A DNA stretch of 63,279 nucleotides, counting the filler, from Asterionella formosa (lineage: Eukaryota): the NCBI GenBank assembly GCA_002256025.1. It is 7 parts of 7 records of this genome, joined end to end, with 100 filler letters (N's around TTAATTAATTAA, not from the genome) between each part and the next. Parts side by side here need not be neighbours in the genome. Positions count along the whole stretch, not along the records: positions 36,247 to 45,193 come from NKIB01011406.1; 6 more parts are not named here. One strand, written 5' to 3'. The notes under the pieces are model-generated. The model worked only from the letters and a program-made list of their open reading frames with translations. It made no database searches and was not told the origin of the DNA. Both the position numbers and the translations under genes were made by a program. This document shows, piece by piece, positions 4,560 through 45,150 of this stretch (the stretch's first letter is position 1; the number at the start of each line of letters is the position of its first letter).

Positions 4560-5077
4560 ACAATACTGTACCAGCTACCAGGTACTGGTACCATGTGACT
4601 GTAAAAAGTTTAGAATTCTACCGTTTGTCAGAAACTGGTACATTAATCTAGGTACCTAGTACTGGTCCACCAGGTATCGTCTGGCTCGGTACCAGGTACC
4701 AGGTACCTGGGAACCACGTACCATATAGTAAATTTTGAAACCGGTAGTTTAACGGTAGCCATATCCAAGAGAGGCAGGTGGATCTTTTGTCTGGCTATAC
4801 ATATCATCGAAACATGATACGTTACTGGAATGATGTAGACTAATAAAATACATGGACATATGTTATTGTTCTGTCGGGGGAACAATTGTACGCGTAGATA
4901 AACAAAACCAATTTCATGTCCTCACTTTCACCGGCATTTTGCAGCTCCTCTGCTTGTTGCATTTTTCATTCCGCTCAAACTTCTTCACATCGATTCTCCG
5001 GTACATTGCAAATACCATAAATCACAGGCACAGGCACAGCCTAGCCCACTCACTCACTCACTCACTCACCCATCATC

Positions 5078-7828
5078 ATGTCTAGAATGATGCTTGCTGC
5101 CGCACGCCGCGTGGCTGTGCACAACAACGGATCGCTGCTGCTGCAACAACAGCGCTTCGCCTGTCCAAGGCGCACCCTGTCGTTCTGGACCGACTATCAA
5201 GCGCACGTGTCGGAACGCGCGGCCATGGCGAACGGATATGGCATTGCACCCAAGCCACTAGATGCCAGCCAAGTCACCGCCCTGATTGACGACTTGACGA
5301 GCAACACAGATGCGAAGGAACTGGTCCAGCTTCTGGCCACCAGAGTCCCGCCCGGAGTCGACGAAGCTGCGTACGTCAAGGCGGGATACCTCTCGGCCTT
5401 GGCAACCAACAAGGAGCCCTGTCCGTCTGGAATCACTAGAGAGTACGCCATTGAATTGCTGGGCACCATGCAGGGGGGATACAATGTGGCGACGCTCGTG
5501 GAGCTCCTGTCGGATGCAGACGCGGCCATTGCTTCCCTGGCAGCGCAGCAACTCTCAAAGACTCTTCTGGTATTCGACGCCTTTTACGACGTGGAGCTGC
5601 TGCACAAGAACGGATGCAAGGCGGCCACGACTGTCTTGGAATCATGGGCCAAGGCGGACTGGTTCTTGACCAGACCATCCGTACCACAGAAGATCACCAC
5701 CACCGTCTTCAAAGTCACAGGGGAAACCAACACGGACGACTTGTCGCCAGCACAAGATGCATGGAGCCGACCAGACATTCCCCTGCATGCCGCATCCATG
5801 CTCAAGAATGCACGCGATGGCATTACGCCCATCCAAGACGGGACCTTGGGACCACTCCAGCAAATTCAAGATTTACAAGCCAAGGGTTACCCTCTCACCT
5901 ATGTTGGAGACGTGGTGGGAACTGGCAGCTCAAGAAAGTCGGCGACCAATTCGGTCTTGTGGTTCATGGGAGAGGACATTCCATACGTGCCCAATCTCAA
6001 GGGCGGCGGCTTGTGCTTGGGCAGCAAAATCGCACCAATCTTTTTCAACACCATGGAAGATTCGGGAGCACTTCCCATTGAATTGGATGTGTCGAACTTG
6101 CACATGGGAGATGTCATTGATGTGTACCCTCATGACGGAAAGGTATGCAAGGCTGGGACTGACACTGTTCTATCAACCTTTGAACTTAAAACTACTGTCA
6201 TCTTGGATGAAGTTAGAGCTGGAGGACGCATTCCATTGATTATTGGACGTGGTCTCACATCCAAGGCGCGGGCCGCCCTTGGTCAGGACTCATCTGTCGC
6301 TGACATCTTTCAGTTAGCACCGCCTCCAACTCATGTACCTCCGGGATTGACCTTGGCGCAAAAAATGGTTGCCAAGGCATGTGGCATCCCCGCTGTCGTT
6401 CCGGGACAATATTGCGAACCAGCCATGACGACTGTCGGATCGCAAGACACTACTGGACCCATGACACGAGATGAATTGCGCGGTTTGGCTTGTTTGGGAT
6501 TCAGTGCTGATTTGGTCATGCAATCATTTTGCCACACGGCAGCCTATCCAAAGCCAGTCGATGTGGTGACACACCATACCCTGCCGGACTTTATTCGCAC
6601 AAGAGGAGGGGTGTCCTTGAAACCTGGGGATGGTATCATTCATTCCTGGTTGAATCGTATGCTTATGCCAGATACTGTGGGAACTGGAGGAGATTCTCAC
6701 ACACGATTTCCCATTGGGATTTCCTTCCCGGCTGGTTCGGGACTGGTGGCCTTTGCAGCTGCGACTGGCATCATGCCACTGGACATGCCGGAATCGGTCC
6801 TTGTCAAGTTTACTGGAGACATGCAGCCCGGTATTACTTTGAGAGATTTGGTTCAAGCCATCCCCTGGAAGGCACAGCAAATGGGATTGTTGACCTTGGA
6901 CAAGAAGGGAAAGAAAAACATATTTTCAGGAAAGATTTTGGAAATTGAAGGCTTGCCTCATTTGAAATGCGAACAAGCATTTGAACTTTCCGACGCCTCG
7001 GCCGAACGCTCTGCTGCTGGATGCACCATTAAGCTTGATAAGGAACCCATTATCGAGTACCTTAACTCAAACATTGTTATGCTTAAGTGGATGATTGCTG
7101 AAGGGTACGGCGATGCCCGAACATTGGAACGACGCATTGCTCGCATGGAGGAATGGCTAGATAATCCGGTCTTGATGGAAGCTGACCCAAATGCAGAGTA
7201 CGCCCAAGTGATTGAAATCAACTTGAACGAACTCACTGAACCAATTTTGGCATTGCCTAATGATCCAGACGCTTCCGCAACCTTGAGTGAAGTTGCCGGA
7301 CGTCCCATTGATGAAGTCTTTATTGGTTCTTGTATGACGAACATTGGGCATTTCCGTGCTGCTGGAAAACTCTTGGAAAAACTCAAAACTCCGCTTCCGA
7401 CTAGACTTTGGATTGCCCCACCTACCAAAATGGACGAAGCTCAACTTTCCGAAGAAGGATATTATTCAATTTTTGGTACTGCTGGTGCCAGAACAGAAAT
7501 GCCAGGATGCTCCTTGTGTATGGGCAACCAAGCTCGTGTGGCCCCCAAGTCCACCGTTGTATCAACATCGACCCGCAACTTTCCCAATCGTCTTGGACAA
7601 GGAGCCAATGTTTACTTGGCATCGGCAGAACTTGCTGCGATTGCCTCCATTCTCGGACGTCTCCCTACCATGGATGAGTACCTTTCGTACATGGACCAAG
7701 TCAATGCCACTGCTGCAGATACCTATAGATACTTGAACTTTGATCAGTTGCCTGCCTTTGTCAAATCAGCGGATAGTGTGGAGATCAGTCAGGAAATGAA
7801 AGATGCGGCCCATAAACTAATGGTGTAA
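5078..7828 (+). CDS. acnB: Aconitate hydratase B (bacterial AcnB type) with a predicted mitochondrial presequence; intronless
   Basis: AcnB motifs [55 protein letters not shown]; Fe-S ligands GSCMTN and [12 protein letters not shown]-terminus [13 protein letters not shown] is Arg/Ala-rich with no acidic residues. Confidence 0.97.
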
Positions 7829-37733: not shown

Positions 37734-40219
37734 ATGACATCCAACGACAACGACGACGACACATCAAGTGCTTATTCACGATGGACGTTGCTGCAAGAGG
37801 ACGCCATTGACTATGGATATTTTGCCAAGTCAGGAGGAGTTTCAGTTGCCGCCACTTCTGCTACTACTACTACCACCACTGCTACTGCTGCTGAGGATCC
37901 GGCATCGTTTTATATAACAACTGCCATTAACTATACCAATGGACCAGCTCATATGGGACATGCCTACGAAGCCGCAACGTCAGATGCCATTGCAAGATTT
38001 GTTCGGCTACAAGGATCGCATCATTCGACCTACTTTGTCACTGGTGCTGATGAGCACGGACAGAAAATTGCAAATACCGCTGCTGCTATTGGACAAGAGC
38101 CAATGGAAATTTGTGACAAGGTAAGTTCATCATGTACGCCTACTGACGACATTTGCTACATCTCGTTGATTATGACAAGTTTTTATTTAGTCGTTCCTAC
38201 TTGTTGAAAAACCATGCACCTCACACACTTTTTCACACACCACGACAGTACGTTACTGGCTTTCAATGTTTGAATCAACGTATTCTCATTTCTAATGATG
38301 ATTACATTCGAACAACATCAGATCGCCACAAACGGACAGCTCAAGCGTTGTGGAACAAATGTTCGGACAATGGCGACATTTACCTTGATACATATTCAGG
38401 ATGGTACAACATTCGGGAAGAAACGTTCGTCACCGACTCAGATGCAGCACTTATGGAATACAAGGATCCAACATCTGGACTTGATCTAAAGCAAGTTCAA
38501 GAAGAATCGTACTTTTTTAAAATGAGTGCCTATCATGATGCACTCGTACAGCACATTCAAAATCATGTGGAATTCATACGGCCTGAGCATCATCGGAACT
38601 TGATTTTGGCAAGACTACAAGGTGATCGATTGAGGGATTTATCCATTTCTCGAACCACCTTTGCATGGGGAATACCAGTCCCTCAAGGCTTTGCTGAACA
38701 TCATGTCATGTATGTGTGGGTTGATGCTCTTAGTAACTACTTGACTGGGGTGGATGCCCTAGGAGTCAACAGCAATAACAATGATGATCATGATGGATCG
38801 GCGGTGGACTTGTCCCACTTTTGGCCTGCCAATATTCACATTATTGGAAAGGATATTCTATGGTTCCACACTGTCATTTGGCCATGTTTATTGATGAGCG
38901 CGGGCCTACCACTCCCCAAGACAGTCTTTGCGCATGGATTCGTTAATGACAAGGAAGGAAAAAAGATGAGCAAGAGTATGGGCAATGTCGTGGATCCACA
39001 TGATATGTTGGACAAATTCCCAGTAGATACATTTCGTTGGTATTTATGTAAAGAAGCACCTTATGGAGGGGAATTGTCCTTTAGCGAGGAATCCATGAAA
39101 GACATGCACAACGCTGATTTGTGTGATACTCTTGGAAATTTGGTACACCGTGCAACGAATCTTTGTGGCAAGTATTGTAATGGAAAAGTTCCCAATGTGC
39201 CACCTCCTATCAAATCTCCAATTGATTTAGGCAAACTTGTTGCCGATTACCAAGCCAAGATGAAACAGTTGGAACTTGAGGGTGGGGCCAACATTGCTAT
39301 TCAAGGATTCCGTGATGTGAATCGATACTTGACAGAAAATGCACCCTGGCTCCTAAAGGGTGACGAGCATGAAGAAGCTCGTCAAGTGACGGTCCGAGCC
39401 ACTCTTGAAGCTATTTACGGACTGGCTCACTTGCTATTGCCATTTCTTCCAGTTGGTGGGTCTGCCATTTTCAAAAAACTAAATACCGAGCCCACAACTC
39501 TGGAGGTGCTGGGAAAAGATTGTCGTAATTTGGTGGTAGGAACAGAGATTACTGTGGGTAACATATTGTACACCAAACTTGTTGATACGGTTGAAACATT
39601 TACAGATACTACAACCTCCACAAAAGAGTCACATGCAGAAGCTCAGAAGCGCAAGAAGGAGAAGAAGGCCGCCATCATTTCAGCAAACAAGGCGGGACAG
39701 GATGCCCTCGCCGATACTGACCAATCAGAATTCACCAAAATGGACATTCGGGTTGGTCAGATTATCAAGGTGTGGAATCACGAAGAGGCGGATAAACTTT
39801 TGTGTGAAGAGATTGATGTCGGGGAAGAGACTGGACCTCGTCAGATTGCATCCGGCTTGCGTCAATACTATTCGTTGGAGCAGATGCAAGGGAAAAAGGT
39901 TCTAGTGGTGTGTAATCTAAAAGCGTCCAAGATTGTCGGATTCACCAGCAACGGCATGGTCTTGGCGGCCAAGGGCGAGGGAAAGGTTGAATTGGTATGT
40001 CCTCCGGATGACGCGAAAATTGGTGAGCGTGTCTTTATTGAAGGCCTCAATGGAGAGCCATTCACTTCTGCTCAGGTAAAGAAGAAGAAGACAATGGAAG
40101 CAGTTGCAAAGGACTTGAAGACTGGTGAGGGCGGAGTGGCTACATGGGATGGCAAGACCATTCAAACCTCCGCTGGACCTTGTCACGCGGCGTCCCTTGT
40201 TGGTGCACCCATATCGTAG
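37734..40219 (+). CDS. metG: Methionyl-tRNA synthetase with C-terminal EMAPII/Trbp111-like tRNA-binding domain; exons 37734-38120 and 38249-40219
   Basis: FYITTAINYTNGPAHMGH (HIGH), GADEHGQKI, LSISR, YVWVDAL, IGKDILWFH, KMSKS; C-terminal DIRVGQI...RQIASGL...SNGMVL. AAG|gtaagt...cag|TAC intron. The true start is uncertain. Confidence 0.96.
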
Positions 40220-40458: not shown

Positions 40459-43400
40459 CTAGGTGCCCATGCTCAATAGGTTGCGTCTCCCTCGTTCATA
40501 CGAGACAGACTTCATAAATCTCTCCATGAGCTCGATGTATTTGTGAACAGAGAAAGTATAAAATTGGAGAGACCGAAAATGCATTCGGAGAACCATTTCA
40601 CCATTTTTGAAAACGATATCCTCAATCTTCTCGTCTGACAATCTCGTCAATTTTTCGCAAAGAGCCTCCAAGGCGCTTTGGTGGTCTTCAAATTCCTTCT
40701 CATTTGCTGTTAAACTGTATGCTGCCACGTAGGAGTGCTTAAGAAAGCGACGACAGGAAACGAGAGATTCTCTGGTTGATTCAACGATATCCAGGTCGTC
40801 ACCTGATATACACAGAACTCGATCCTCCATAGCTCGTTGCATGTCCTTCTCAAAGGCATTCAAATGATTTACTGCGTAGTGTTCTGCATCTTCGTGACCA
40901 AGATATCGATCGGTGTAGAACAAGTCACGCTTCAACTGGTCATCATCTGTATGCTCGAGTGGATCAAATTGACTACATTGATGAGGAGCAATCTGTGTAC
41001 CTAAGTGAGACAAGCATTGCCAGCAAAACTCATGATAACACTGAGAGCAAGTCATGTGGTCACAGCCGCCATTCTTTTCCATCGGAACACTGCATCCAGG
41101 ACAAGGCTTTATGTTCTTGATAATCCATAATTTGGAATTGCCGAAAAGGCGATTCCAATCCTGAACGTCCCGACAGCGTGCTGGTGTGTGAGGTGAGTCC
41201 CCACATGAAAAGCAAAAACGAGTCGAGCATTTGCTGCAAGTTATAATACCTTCTTCATTAGGCACATGGGCAACAACTTTGCAATCTGGACCCGGGCATG
41301 CGCGGTATTGAGAATCTTTATCAATAAACTCGTCGAGCATTACCTTACGCCAAAATAACTCGTCAGTAGGATGGATGGGAGAAACTCGGTTGGCACATTC
41401 ATGAGATGGGCAAGTGGATTTTAGAAGGTGGATGGCTCCTTCGTCTACCTTGTTAGCAATGTAGGAGTGCCAACAGGGATAGCAGAAGTAGTGACTACAC
41501 CCCAATGAGTACACATCTGTAGATTGTAAATCATTATCAAAGCATATTTCGCAAGTATAGCTTGACAATTCCATTGAATCAGGTTGTTCATTAGACGAAA
41601 TGAGATATGCGACACCATGATCATTCAAGACACCATCGCGGTCCATGCACAGTCCCGAGTGTGCATTTTCGACGGAGAAATCATAGTCCTGAAGCAAGAT
41701 GGTAGCAACACTCTCTGGAACATTTCCTTGGTCGGCAAGGGCTATAATTCGTGAAGTAAGATCTGCGTAAATCTTCTCCAATTCACTCTCCTTTTCAAGG
41801 TCGATCATTTCTGGTATTAATTCTCCCTTGACTGTCATGTCGAATTGTGAAGCATCTATGGATTTGAGAGTGTTTATGGCACTGTTTCTGATATCTTTTC
41901 GAACATCATGTGCTAAGTAGCTCGACAGGTGATAGGAGGCCAGAGGGTCCAACAATAACAACAAGTCAGTGATCCATCTGGTGGCATTCAGACGTGCTGC
42001 TTCAGAGACATTGCACACAGCGTCAAGCAGGAATGGAAACAGGACGGCAACCGCGCTTTCTTTTTCGGTCACAATGGTAGTTACTTTAATTGCATCCGTA
42101 TACACTTTCAAAAGAGCACATAGAGCGTTTGAGACTTTTGCTGCAACGCGCTCGTCTTCTGTGATCGCACATTTGAAAAGAAGAACTGGTAGGTTGAAGG
42201 ACAATCGACCATTCTTGTCATAGACTTCATGGACTTTCGACAGTTTCGAGATTAAATCGTAAGCAGTCTCTCGAGCTTTTCTGGCGTCGTCAATAGCTCG
42301 ACTCATTCTTCGTTGATTATTGCGATGGTGCCTCAGTATCGGAAGGTTAAAATTCTGTGTTCTGTCACTACCATTAGCACTTGGCATAACATCATCATCC
42401 TCTTCTAATAGATTCATTCTAATCCTTCTATGTGGTTCTTCACGATCATTTATACCATCAGTCAAATCCTGGTCTTGTACATGATTTTGTAGTGGCAAGG
42501 GTGAATTCCTTTCCATCATGTTGCCGATGACAGCTATCGATGCCTGTAGACACTTTCGCTCCAGATCGAGCATCCATTCTTGTTCAAATGACTTGTAGAT
42601 TGGTAATTGTTCAAGAATCCGTCGTAAGAGATGTATTGTTGACAGTCCAGATAGGCTGTGTTGATGCTGTACGGCCAAGACAAGATCCACCAGTAATTGC
42701 AGTTCACCTTTTGCCATTTGACTATTATGAGTAGGAGAAAAGTGAAGTTGGAGAAACTTAAGGGTTCGACATGCCATACCTACCGGAAGTGGTCTCCTTT
42801 TCAAACCTTGTGTATTACTACTTGCGTTTGGTGGTTTCGGTCCGAGAATCCCTTCCCAAATTTTTTTCCGCTCTTTGTGACACTCCAAGTGTGCATGAGC
42901 TTTCGAGTCACCCAAAATTAGAATCAAGCATGAAATTACCACAGAGATGCTACAACAACCACTTCTAGCATCCGTTCTATGCCGTTCTCCTCGGTGTTTC
43001 GTTATCGTCGCGCCATTAGCAACATACTCAGCTGCCAGCTGGCGAGATTTACTACTCCGTTGGCCATTGCAGCTGCTGGCCATTGACAAAATAGACAGTA
43101 TCAATATTTGATCCTCGTGGAGCAATCCACAAAGACAATACCGGAAGCATACATATTTCAATTCCCGTAAATAAACCCTCATGGATTCATTCCAAGGAGA
43201 TTTTTTGCGATGAGAAAGTCGTGCGATGCCTTCATCTGAGAGTCCATCCAAGAGTCCATCTGACACTACGATCCACCATGGCGGAGGGGGTATGTCGTCT
43301 ACTGTAAACAAGGTGAGGTCCAAAAGTATTTCGAAGAGTCCAGATCCATTCTCTCTCATGATGTGTCGAAAGTTTGGGGAAACAACAATCTCCTTGTCAA

Positions 43401-44187
43401 GATATTCATTTGCGGTGGAGAAGGTGGAGGAGGACAGTTCAAAGTCACATGTATCAAAATCCAAGAGTGGTGAAAGGGAATATAATATTGCCACAGTGTC
43501 TAAAACTATCCAACTGGCAGTTCTGAACTCATACTGTTCCTCATCACTAATTCTATTGAGTTGCAATTCCTTCGTTTTAATGTCATTCATGAACTTGATC
43601 AAAGTTTCTTGAGTTTCTTGTATTGGCCTCGATGTTTTGTTTTGTTCGTTGGATTTGGCGCAGCAGCAAGATGCCTGAGTACCCACTTGCATCAATTGTA
43701 ATATCATGCCTCTTGTGACTGGACTCTTGGCTTCTTTTAAAAGTGGTCTTATGGTTGAAAGCCAAGAAATGTCTATGGTGGTCGTTGCTGCCATGCTAGG
43801 ATCGAATGCCTTGAATCGGTCAACAAGATGAGATAGACATGCTCCTAGTTGACCTTGCAATTGTTGCTGTTGTAGCAGTAGCTGTTGTTGTTGCCATTGA
43901 TGTTCTGAGAGACTGCTGCTGCTACCAATACCACCGTTGGTAGCAGTAGCTGCTGTTGTATGCCCATCCAGCAACAAGTTCATGATCGCTCTACTTGAAG
44001 CATCTAAACGTGACAGCAATCGAGGTAAAAGATTTGACAAGATTGTTCCTGATGATAATAATTGGATATTAGTTATTTGTGCCAATCGATTGTGGACTCG
44101 AATGACACTGGCAATTTCCTCCTCGACTAGTATCGCTGCTGCTGCTGATCTTAATGATGATGATTTATGTTTTTGGAGAAAATGCAT
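40459..44187 (-). CDS. Ariadne-type RBR E3 ubiquitin ligase (RING1-IBR-RING2-Ariadne) with an ~800-aa N-terminal HEAT-like, Ecm29-like extension
   Basis: RING1 CEICF...CSHYFCYPCW...CPSHEC; IBR CPGPDC...CSKCSTRFCFSC..PHTPARC; RING2 KPCPGC..MEKNGGCDHMTCSQCYHEFCWQC; Ariadne-domain YTDRYLGH and CRRFLKHSYVAAY. Single open frame. Confidence 0.9.
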   Translation of the reverse strand: MHFLQKHKSSSLRSAAAAILVEEEIASVIRVHNRLAQITNIQLLSSGTILSNLLPRLLSRLDASSRAIMNLLLDGHTTAATATNGGIGSSSSLSEHQWQQQQLLLQQQQLQGQLGACLSHLVDRFKAFDPSMAATTTIDISWLSTIRPLLKEAKSPVTRGMILQLMQVGTQASCCCAKSNEQNKTSRPIQETQETLIKFMNDIKTKELQLNRISDEEQYEFRTASWIVLDTVAILYSLSPLLDFDTCDFELSSSTFSTANEYLDKEIVVSPNFRHIMRENGSGLFEILLDLTLFTVDDIPPPPWWIVVSDGLLDGLSDEGIARLSHRKKSPWNESMRVYLRELKYVCFRYCLCGLLHEDQILILSILSMASSCNGQRSSKSRQLAAEYVANGATITKHRGERHRTDARSGCCSISVVISCLILILGDSKAHAHLECHKERKKIWEGILGPKPPNASSNTQGLKRRPLPVGMACRTLKFLQLHFSPTHNSQMAKGELQLLVDLVLAVQHQHSLSGLSTIHLLRRILEQLPIYKSFEQEWMLDLERKCLQASIAVIGNMMERNSPLPLQNHVQDQDLTDGINDREEPHRRIRMNLLEEDDDVMPSANGSDRTQNFNLPILRHHRNNQRRMSRAIDDARKARETAYDLISKLSKVHEVYDKNGRLSFNLPVLLFKCAITEDERVAAKVSNALCALLKVYTDAIKVTTIVTEKESAVAVLFPFLLDAVCNVSEAARLNATRWITDLLLLLDPLASYHLSSYLAHDVRKDIRNSAINTLKSIDASQFDMTVKGELIPEMIDLEKESELEKIYADLTSRIIALADQGNVPESVATILLQDYDFSVENAHSGLCMDRDGVLNDHGVAYLISSNEQPDSMELSSYTCEICFDNDLQSTDVYSLGCSHYFCYPCWHSYIANKVDEGAIHLLKSTCPSHECANRVSPIHPTDELFWRKVMLDEFIDKDSQYRACPGPDCKVVAHVPNEEGIITCSKCSTRFCFSCGDSPHTPARCRDVQDWNRLFGNSKLWIIKNIKPCPGCSVPMEKNGGCDHMTCSQCYHEFCWQCLSHLGTQIAPHQCSQFDPLEHTDDDQLKRDLFYTDRYLGHEDAEHYAVNHLNAFEKDMQRAMEDRVLCISGDDLDIVESTRESLVSCRRFLKHSYVAAYSLTANEKEFEDHQSALEALCEKLTRLSDEKIEDIVFKNGEMVLRMHFRSLQFYTFSVHKYIELMERFMKSVSYERGRRNLLSMGT

Positions 44188-44379
44188 TTTTAAACGATGT
44201 TTTCATAAAATGTGAGCACCTATGTTTTGCTTTGTCAGTTTCCTTGAACGTGAATCGATTTTCTCTCTCTTTGTCATTTAGCAAAAATCAAGCAAATGTA
44301 CATTATACACAGAAAGGGCAGTACAAGAACTAGCGACCTCGCAGCCCTGACCTCGTCATATCTCGACGAGCTTTTCTGG

Positions 44380-44670
44380 GACATTGTCATGATTTGATGC
44401 ATAGAAGCGGTCATGGAGGATTAATTATTATCAAACCCTAACCCAAATCCCCCAGATTTGGGGCTAGGGCTAGTTTCTTGACACCATAGTGATCATGATG
44501 CAATGCACAGACACGGTCGTGGAGGAGGAATTATTGTCGAACCCTAACCCTAAAGGGCTAGTTTCTTGACACCATACCGGTAGTGATCTTCATGTAATGC
44601 CCAGACAGGGTCGTCGAGGAGGAATCATTGTCGCACTAACCCTAATCCCCCAAAATTTAGGGGTTAAGGA
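44380..44670. repeat. ~3 degenerate tandem units each carrying a telomere-like (a)accctaaccc
   Basis: ggagga..aattatt.tc.aaccctaaccc and gggctagtttcttgacaccata recur. Confidence 0.7.
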
Positions 44671-44974
44671 ATGACACCCCCATCGGAATTGAAATAGAGT
44701 TGACCTGACCAAACCGGCACCCTGACCAATTTTGGATTTGACCTTGTGGTACAGCCCCCGTAGAACTTCCGTATGATCTTGTCTTATTTTTAGTTCATTC
44801 AATTATGGATATTTTTTCATTATTATAAATGATTTCCAATGCCGCTGGCGCGCGCTACACGAATCCGTCGTAAAAAGGTACGCAATAGCAGTCCAACAAT
44901 TTTTATGTACATCGCAAACTCAGTATTTTTGCGCAGCACTCGTGGATGAATGATTATCATCTTTATTAAGGTTC

Positions 44975-45150
44975 CTGCATTTGAACCCCTAGGCAAAATG
45001 TAAAATATTGCTTAGGGTTGCCGAAATTCCCTGGAACTAAGAATTTTTATGAGTTAATTTTGAATGACGTGATTCCAATTGAAATATTTGAATCACTGGA
45101 AATTTGCGCGTACATACATAGATTCCTTTTCGAATTCAATAAATATATAC
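44975..45150 (+). repeat. Dispersed repeat, second copy at ~57712-57885
   Basis: ccctaggcaaaa..taaaatattgcttagggttgcc.aaattccctggaa...tgaatgacgtgattcca is shared by two scaffolds. Confidence 0.85.

Follow-up and report, generated by a model that had tools for sequence, protein, structure and literature searches.

Positions 40459-44187 on the minus strand of a 63,279-nucleotide stretch of DNA from the diatom Asterionella formosa (assembly GCA_002256025.1; the whole stretch is referred to here as the window) encode a predicted protein of 1,242 amino acids, P0001, in which an arm derived from the proteasome adaptor Ecm29 precedes an Ariadne-type RING-between-RING (RBR) ubiquitin ligase. By sequence comparison, P0001 is one member of a conserved diatom family that joins an Ecm29 arm to an Ariadne ligase. 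This domain architecture is real, previously unannotated, and built from two known parts; no description of the fusion protein was found in the literature searched, a search that subscription journals lie outside. We give roughly equal odds for and against the protein being a cullin-independent RBR ligase that docks on the 19S ATPase ring.

The Ecm29-derived arm and its family

Residues 10-779 of P0001 (41851-44160; all features of the protein lie on the minus strand) correspond to residues 10-748 of diatom Ecm29, which include the whole Pfam domain ECM29_N. Aligning the two with hhalign gave a probability of 100% and an E value of 1.9e-46 over 634 colinear columns, and a second hhalign comparison gave a probability of 100% and an E value of 6.4e-44 over 736 columns. 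The homology is colinear with the N-terminal third of diatom Ecm29 and extends along the entire arm, not just its two ends. In profile searches with the database size fixed at 1e6, a profile built from 43 arms matched 49 of 49 diatom Ecm29 proteins with E values of 5e-25 to 1e-58, and the reverse profile, made from Ecm29, recovered 55 of the 78 family proteins below E 1e-3 (P0001 at 2e-11). Reversed Ecm29, Ecm29 past residue 900, and a HEAT-bearing aconitase, used as controls, scored 2.5 bits or less.

Single-sequence searches gave far less. BLAST against the genome's own Ecm29 was weak, with E values of 9e-5 for P0001 (residues 639-771) and 2e-7 for its relative P0005, and Pfam applied to P0001 alone missed the arm, with no ECM29_N match at E ≤ 0.1. 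Among the 42 relatives scanned with Pfam, 7 passed the ECM29_N cut-off, which P0001 itself does not, and 6 more matched below it; none matched HEAT_ECM29 (PF24492) or any other HEAT or ARM family. The family matches fall at ECM29_N model positions 3-114, 157-220, and about 360-495. Because they run to position ~495 of the 497-position model, with the linker close behind, the fusion point coincides with a domain boundary.

Conservation within the arm follows that of Ecm29 (rho 0.48 between the two profiles, 609 pairs), and 73 positions are conserved in both families, 60 of them identically. Ten of these 60 lie in an N-terminal cap at residues 30-61 (44005-44100), the best-conserved stretch between the two families. 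Conserved features specific to the arm are W226, D230, a motif at residues 464-468, and an insertion at residues 565-627 (42307-42495), which is left unaligned against Ecm29 and absent from it. This insertion includes a Pro-Gly segment that is conserved and a helix with a terminal His-Arg and a basic run; R622 is present in 41 of 43 family members, and the strict motif in 24 of 43 versus 0 of 49 Ecm29 proteins. A second, low-complexity insertion rich in Thr, Ser, and Gln (residues ~75-110; 43858-43965) is not conserved: relatives have a gap there, and residues 75-93 form an unaligned run.

From these comparisons we infer that the arm folds as a HEAT solenoid. The best PDB match of an arm-only profile of 15 sequences had an E value of 0.39, and no Ecm29 structure was detectable there by sequence. 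The ESM Atlas pointed to MMS19 for residues 1-800 (0.90; 124-133 of 256 shared features) and to listerin for one relative (0.77), but both values are in the leads-only range and are outweighed by the profile results. Those results also rule out a generic HEAT/ARM identity: the first-pass annotation had called the N-terminal region Ecm29-like, and its resemblance proved specific, with the arm profile matching every diatom Ecm29 while the PDB, reversed Ecm29, and the C-terminal HEAT repeats of Ecm29 gave nothing.

A phmmer search with residues 1-800 against 1.84 billion representatives returned 75 matches, none longer than 1,427 residues. Together with P0001, P0003, and P0005, they make up a set of 78 proteins gathered through the arm alone; 61 have the RBR on the same chain, in the same order. 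The remaining 17 stop no more than 129 residues from the arm match and contain no other long domain, as expected, at the protein level, of truncated gene calls. Two members among the 24 proteins looked up are named by organism, Nitzschia inconspicua KAG7342051.1 and Mediolabrus comicus KAL7455313.1, which we take to be a pennate and a centric diatom, respectively; others are labeled ariadne-1, IBR protein, or hypothetical. A word-based protein search found four relatives, or five matches with the family profile, too few to draw taxonomy from. The fusion recurs in other diatoms.

We built FastTree phylogenies of each half, neither with an outgroup outside diatoms. In the arm tree, the 43 arms group together and are separated from 25 Ecm29 proteins (stem 0.85, support 1.0); in the RBR tree, the 46 family sequences likewise make up a single clade, to the exclusion of the two other Ariadne proteins of the genome (support 0.996). 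Arm and RBR identities co-vary across 35 members (Mantel rho 0.70; 0 of 2,000 permutations as high), which is consistent with one fusion, vertically inherited, shared ancestry being what explains the co-variation. The genome also encodes a separate full-length Ecm29 of 2,349 residues with both ECM29_N and HEAT_ECM29, whose named relatives are all diatoms. Its gene is an intronless frame (L002:2744-9793, G000:C8985), and full-length diatom Ecm29 proteins mostly measure 2,200-2,470 residues versus 1,845 for human ECPAS. Two short degenerate copies of arm-coding sequence (G000:C13464:25133-25374 and G000:C10075:6585-6799; L005-L008) cover residues 178-307 at 59-66% identity, contain stops, and are apparently pseudogene fragments.

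The fusion gene is a single exon. It occupies one frame on one genome contig from ATG to stop, and its translation bears out the uninterrupted 1,242-residue frame of the first-pass annotation and contains all the peptides quoted there. The start codon is the first ATG after an in-frame upstream stop (stop-to-stop frame, 40459-44202). It is typical of the family, since the first conserved motif, at residue 30 in P0001, lies at positions 10-62 (strict pattern) in 24 of 43 full-length members. The stretch or part of it is contained in 12 of the 14 sequencing runs listed, mostly lake or freshwater RNA, and 7 runs hold at least half of its words. We examined transcript continuity in four runs (X1, X2, X3, and X7), and in three of them contigs span the frame without a joint. 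In X2, which is an RNA run by the tool's guess only, a 3,888-nt contig covers 40312-44196 without a joint, and the neighboring gene is on a separate contig. X1 and X3 (polyA) each gave one contig over both the fusion gene and its neighbor, with no joint within the frame; the X3 contig ends at 44147, 40 nt before the ATG. Because these two contigs omit a 128-nt GT..AG intron of the neighboring gene, we consider them RNA-derived. X7 yielded short pieces only, and its gaps over the frame were not counted as evidence. RNA contigs of this kind show neither strand, transcript ends, nor expression level, but their passage through the frame without a joint indicates that the gene is intronless and continuous at the RNA level, so the transcript, whose continuity the first-pass annotation had singled out for checking, is unsplit.

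The Ariadne ligase module

Residues ~810-1220 form a complete Ariadne module, with UBA-like, RING1, IBR, RING2 (Rcat), and Ariadne domains in that order, as first annotated. Similarity to human ARIH2 (E 1.1e-40), to ARIH1 (about 1e-35), and to the RBR of CUL9 spans residues 818-1204, and the Pfam IBR and RING2 matches of P0001 lie above cut-off. To compare functional residues, we transferred ARIH1 numbering through the genome's canonical Ariadne, a single canonical diatom Ariadne serving as the reference.

The UBA-like domain (residues ~809-860; 41608-41763) aligns with ARIH2 from residue 818 onward, and its core Leu position is hydrophobic in 46 of 46 family RBRs. RING1 (residues 879-931; 41395-41553), placed by alignment to ARIH proteins, has I881 at the position of ARIH1 I188, which is Ile or Val in all 46. 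It is followed by the IBR (residues 947-1005; 41173-41349; PF01485, E 2.1e-18) and by RING2/Rcat (residues 1025-1071; 40975-41115; PF22191), which bears the catalytic Cys1042 (codon 41062-41064) and His1044. In the rows with residues at these positions, the cysteine is kept in 44 of 44 and the histidine in 43 of 44; the position after His1044 is Asp in P0001 and Asn in 43 of 44. The Cys/His zinc ligands of RING1, IBR, and Rcat are nearly invariant in the family alignment. With these residues in place, we infer that P0001 is a catalytically active RBR ligase.

In the Ariadne domain (residues ~1085-1220; 40528-40935), Y1104 and E1178 align with the autoinhibitory residues F430 and E503 of ARIH1, which, like the NEDD8-binding residues V123 and F150, are taken from PMC7904520. 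The F430 position is aromatic in 41 of 46 members and the E503 position is Glu in 44 of 46, and P0001 is probably autoinhibited. The E431 position is Ala in 39 of 46 and likewise in the canonical diatom Ariadne, which makes it uninformative for the fusion family.

The surfaces through which ARIH1 contacts NEDD8 are altered. Q820 and C847 of P0001 align with V123 and F150, and the family is mostly polar or charged at these positions, with a hydrophobic residue in only 3 and 5 of 46 members, respectively. The W452 position is hydrophobic in 0 of 46, in what is the least secure column of the alignment, with a family-conserved Trp/Phe pair four residues upstream. Val, Tyr, and Trp are retained at the three positions in the genome's canonical Ariadne. 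That W452 has a role in ARIH1 is our own assumption, one not found in the passages available of PMC7904520 or PMC8460447. The acidic N-terminal tail of Ariadne ligases is also absent, with at most 3 Asp or Glu per 15 residues in the first 60 amino acids; the arm stands there instead. As judged from the alignment, part of the cullin/NEDD8 interface residues is lost, and binding to NEDD8-cullin is presumably lost as well.

The same genome encodes two other Ariadne architectures. Its canonical Ariadne has an acidic first exon and matches ARIH1 at E 1e-70, and a third type, a 1,435-residue frame (L013:1330-5637, G000:C12814), has ankyrin-like repeats (recognized by eye) and an Ariadne RBR, with a zinc finger at its C-terminus. 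Because both of these are present, the fusion gene is an addition to the Ariadne set.

Possible partners of the arm

Published cross-links, cited here as they appear in the available parts of each source, connect the N-terminal region of Ecm29 with the 19S ATPase ring. In an in situ cross-link table for human Ecm29, 161 of 163 spectra join K67, K156, K285, and K336 to Rpt5; in a second table, 11 of 12 spectra come from these lysines, all to Rpt5, and the authors modeled Ecm29 residues 1-540 on Rpt5 (PMC12663562). The span from 67 to 336 corresponds approximately to residues ~116-478 of P0001 (42754-43842), as mapped by eye through the diatom Ecm29 alignment rather than computed. For yeast Ecm29, 13 of 31 inter-subunit cross-link rows originate from residues ≤650, with Rpt4, Rpt5, Rpt1, and Rpn1 as partners, including cross-links from K9-K61 to K55-K63 of Rpt4 (PMC8214149, Table S2C). 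An N-terminal Ecm29 fragment, the limits of which are not in the text available, pulled down Rpt1 from brain lysate (PMC7041676). In a docking model (bioRxiv 10.1101/2022.06.06.495046), the N-terminal shank sits on Rpn1/Rpn10 and the 19S-20S interface is occupied by the C-terminal part. Rpt5 and four further Rpt subunits are encoded in the A. formosa genome. The correspondence of the arm to the portion of human Ecm29 that cross-links to Rpt5 lends circumstantial support to the proteasome tethering of the ligase, which we regard as about an even bet.

We propose the following scheme. In an ancestral diatom, as homology and the trees show, the N-terminal third of Ecm29 was duplicated and joined to an Ariadne RBR, replacing the acidic tail, and the product would no longer use the NEDD8-cullin docking surfaces. 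The arm would most likely dock the ligase on the 19S ATPase ring near Rpt5/Rpt4, because the N-terminal part of Ecm29 cross-links there, and without the C-terminal arm of Ecm29 it would neither clamp nor split the 19S-20S interface. The fusion could thereby bring E2~ubiquitin to the proteasome, where it might ubiquitylate substrates that are engaged or have stalled, or else subunits of regulatory particles that are aberrant or still assembling. Docking at Rpt5/Rpt4 followed by ubiquitylation at the proteasome is, in our estimate, a balanced proposition. It is speculative that docking, or the family-specific insertion, takes over from a neddylated cullin in releasing the catalytic cysteine, and activation by docking seems to us rather unlikely. 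Equally tentative is its fullest version, a proteasome-activated RBR in which the arm would sense the Rpt5/Rpt4 face of a stalled, oxidized, or half-assembled 19S, docking would relieve autoinhibition, and the particles or their stuck substrates would be marked.

Several observations weigh against proteasome docking and cullin independence. The arm is strongly diverged, with a mean pairwise identity of 27% and a mean tree distance of 2.5 versus 1.3 for Ecm29 (the two sets differ in sampling), and many of the residues common to arm and Ecm29 could have a structural role. An aromatic residue is kept at the W140 position in 40 of 46 RBRs, which argues against complete loss of the NEDD8 interface, and 3 cullins are encoded in the genome. 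In work by Gorbea and coworkers in 2010, the N-terminal half of human Ecm29 was reportedly lost from gradient-purified 26S, and is said to have bound endosomal proteins. Of the yeast cross-link rows, 18 of 31 come from the C-terminal part that is absent from the fusion, half of them to Rpn6 (PMC8214149). The same N-terminal fragment that pulled down Rpt1 binds ankyrin-G, KIF5B, and Arp1 (PMC7041676). Yeast Ecm29 requires two sites, Rpt5 and the phosphorylated α7 tail (PMC4908598), so that one arm may bind weakly.

The chief alternative, which we consider less probable but a serious contender, is that the arm has been repurposed as a substrate receptor or localization adaptor with membrane, cytoskeletal, or motor partners, leaving a stand-alone, cullin-independent RBR that does not dock on the proteasome. 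It would parallel the ankyrin repeats that front ANKIB1-type ligases, and an ankyrin-fronted Ariadne is present in the same genome. The non-proteasomal partners of the N-terminal region of Ecm29 (PMC7041676), the two-site requirement for Ecm29 binding (PMC4908598), and the divergence of the arm fit this explanation, as do the family-specific conserved residues and the 63-residue insertion absent from Ecm29. However, the arm is cut where the unit modeled on Rpt5 ends, and the stretch best shared with Ecm29 is the N-terminal cap, a site of cross-linking to Rpt4 in yeast.

The fusion might instead remain an E3-E3 partner of neddylated cullins, with the arm recruiting a cullin complex to either the proteasome or a substrate. 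We judge this improbable. The UBA-like and Ariadne domains are kept, the aromatic W140 position is joined by a mostly hydrophobic I124 position, cullins are encoded in the genome, and an N-terminal segment of ARIH2 mediates its binding to CUL5 (PMC8460447), but the acidic tail required by HHARI and TRIAD1 (PMC3817463) is absent and the V123 and F150 positions are mostly polar or charged. Very improbable is an arm that serves as a structural or autoregulatory scaffold, folding back on the RBR with no outside partner: many shared conserved positions are Leu, Ala, Gly, or Pro, and arm and RBR distances co-vary, though shared ancestry accounts for this. Against such a scaffold, it is hard to see why, in the absence of a partner, pennate and centric diatoms alike should keep 780 residues in which Arg, Trp, and Asp positions are conserved. 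Finally, an assembly or read-through artifact joining two genes has a negligible chance of being correct, because despite a fragmented assembly (15,436 contigs) and the lack of an RBR in 17 of 78 relatives, the frame lies on one contig, RNA contigs from three studies cross it without a joint, and the order of the two parts is shared by 61 of 78 relatives, the 17 exceptions being those that end soon after the arm match.

Genomic surroundings and relation to known systems

A methionyl-tRNA synthetase gene with a C-terminal tRNA-binding domain (37734-40219, plus strand) is convergent with the fusion gene, with 239 bases between the stop codons. Its intron, at 38119-38246, is spliced in all four runs. 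Because the X1 and X3 contigs traverse both genes, overlapping 3' ends are suggested. Upstream of the ATG, three imperfect repeats of ~100 bases (44381-44660), each with a telomere-like AACCCT run at its end, lie outside RNA contig coverage. A 33-base stretch at 44966-44998 is a dispersed repeat, matched in three runs by high-depth contigs from elsewhere. Elsewhere in the window, a bacterial-type aconitase B frame (5045-7828, plus strand) lies in a region of raised GC content.

Compared with Ecm29/ECPAS (PF13001, PF24492), the fusion is colinear over residues 10-779 with the N-terminal ~750 residues of the diatom protein, whereas it lacks the C-terminal two thirds and has the conserved 63-residue insertion and the ligase; having no C-terminal solenoid, it is not a member of the Ecm29 family. 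It shares with ARIH1 (HHARI) and ARIH2 (TRIAD1) the domain order, the catalytic Cys and His, and equivalents of F430 and E503, and differs from them in lacking the acidic tail, in the non-hydrophobic V123 and F150 positions, in the 780-residue arm in front, and in forming its own clade. On this evidence, the fusion is an Ariadne RBR by catalytic anatomy and, by the two features tested, not a canonical cullin partner. In CUL9 (PARC) and ANKIB1, the latter being the name we assume for the genome's ankyrin-Ariadne, an Ariadne RBR module likewise follows a large N-terminal unit, but the unit of the fusion is derived from Ecm29 and is neither cullin nor ankyrin. The fused unit of CUL9 is its activating partner (PMC11257990). 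Hul5 (UBE3C), which adds ubiquitin at the proteasome, and Not4, which ubiquitylates Rpt5 as an assembly checkpoint (PMC6568242), are functional analogies only; they are HECT and RING enzymes with unrelated docking, and no homology is claimed.

Characterized Ariadne ligases are activated by neddylated cullins, and the diatom family appears to swap this input for a proteasome-adaptor arm. Reports disagree on which part of Ecm29 binds the proteasome, and a natural fragment in pennate and centric diatoms represents a defined module; the genome-sequenced diatom N. inconspicua has a family member. The recognition and ubiquitylation of faulty proteasomes was described as an open question in a 2019 review (PMC6568242). 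If the proposed docking is correct, the family would be a natural single-chain fusion of proteasome surveillance and ubiquitylation, as well as a natural truncation that marks the 19S-binding module of Ecm29, and it would represent a new way to recruit, and perhaps to activate, an RBR ligase.

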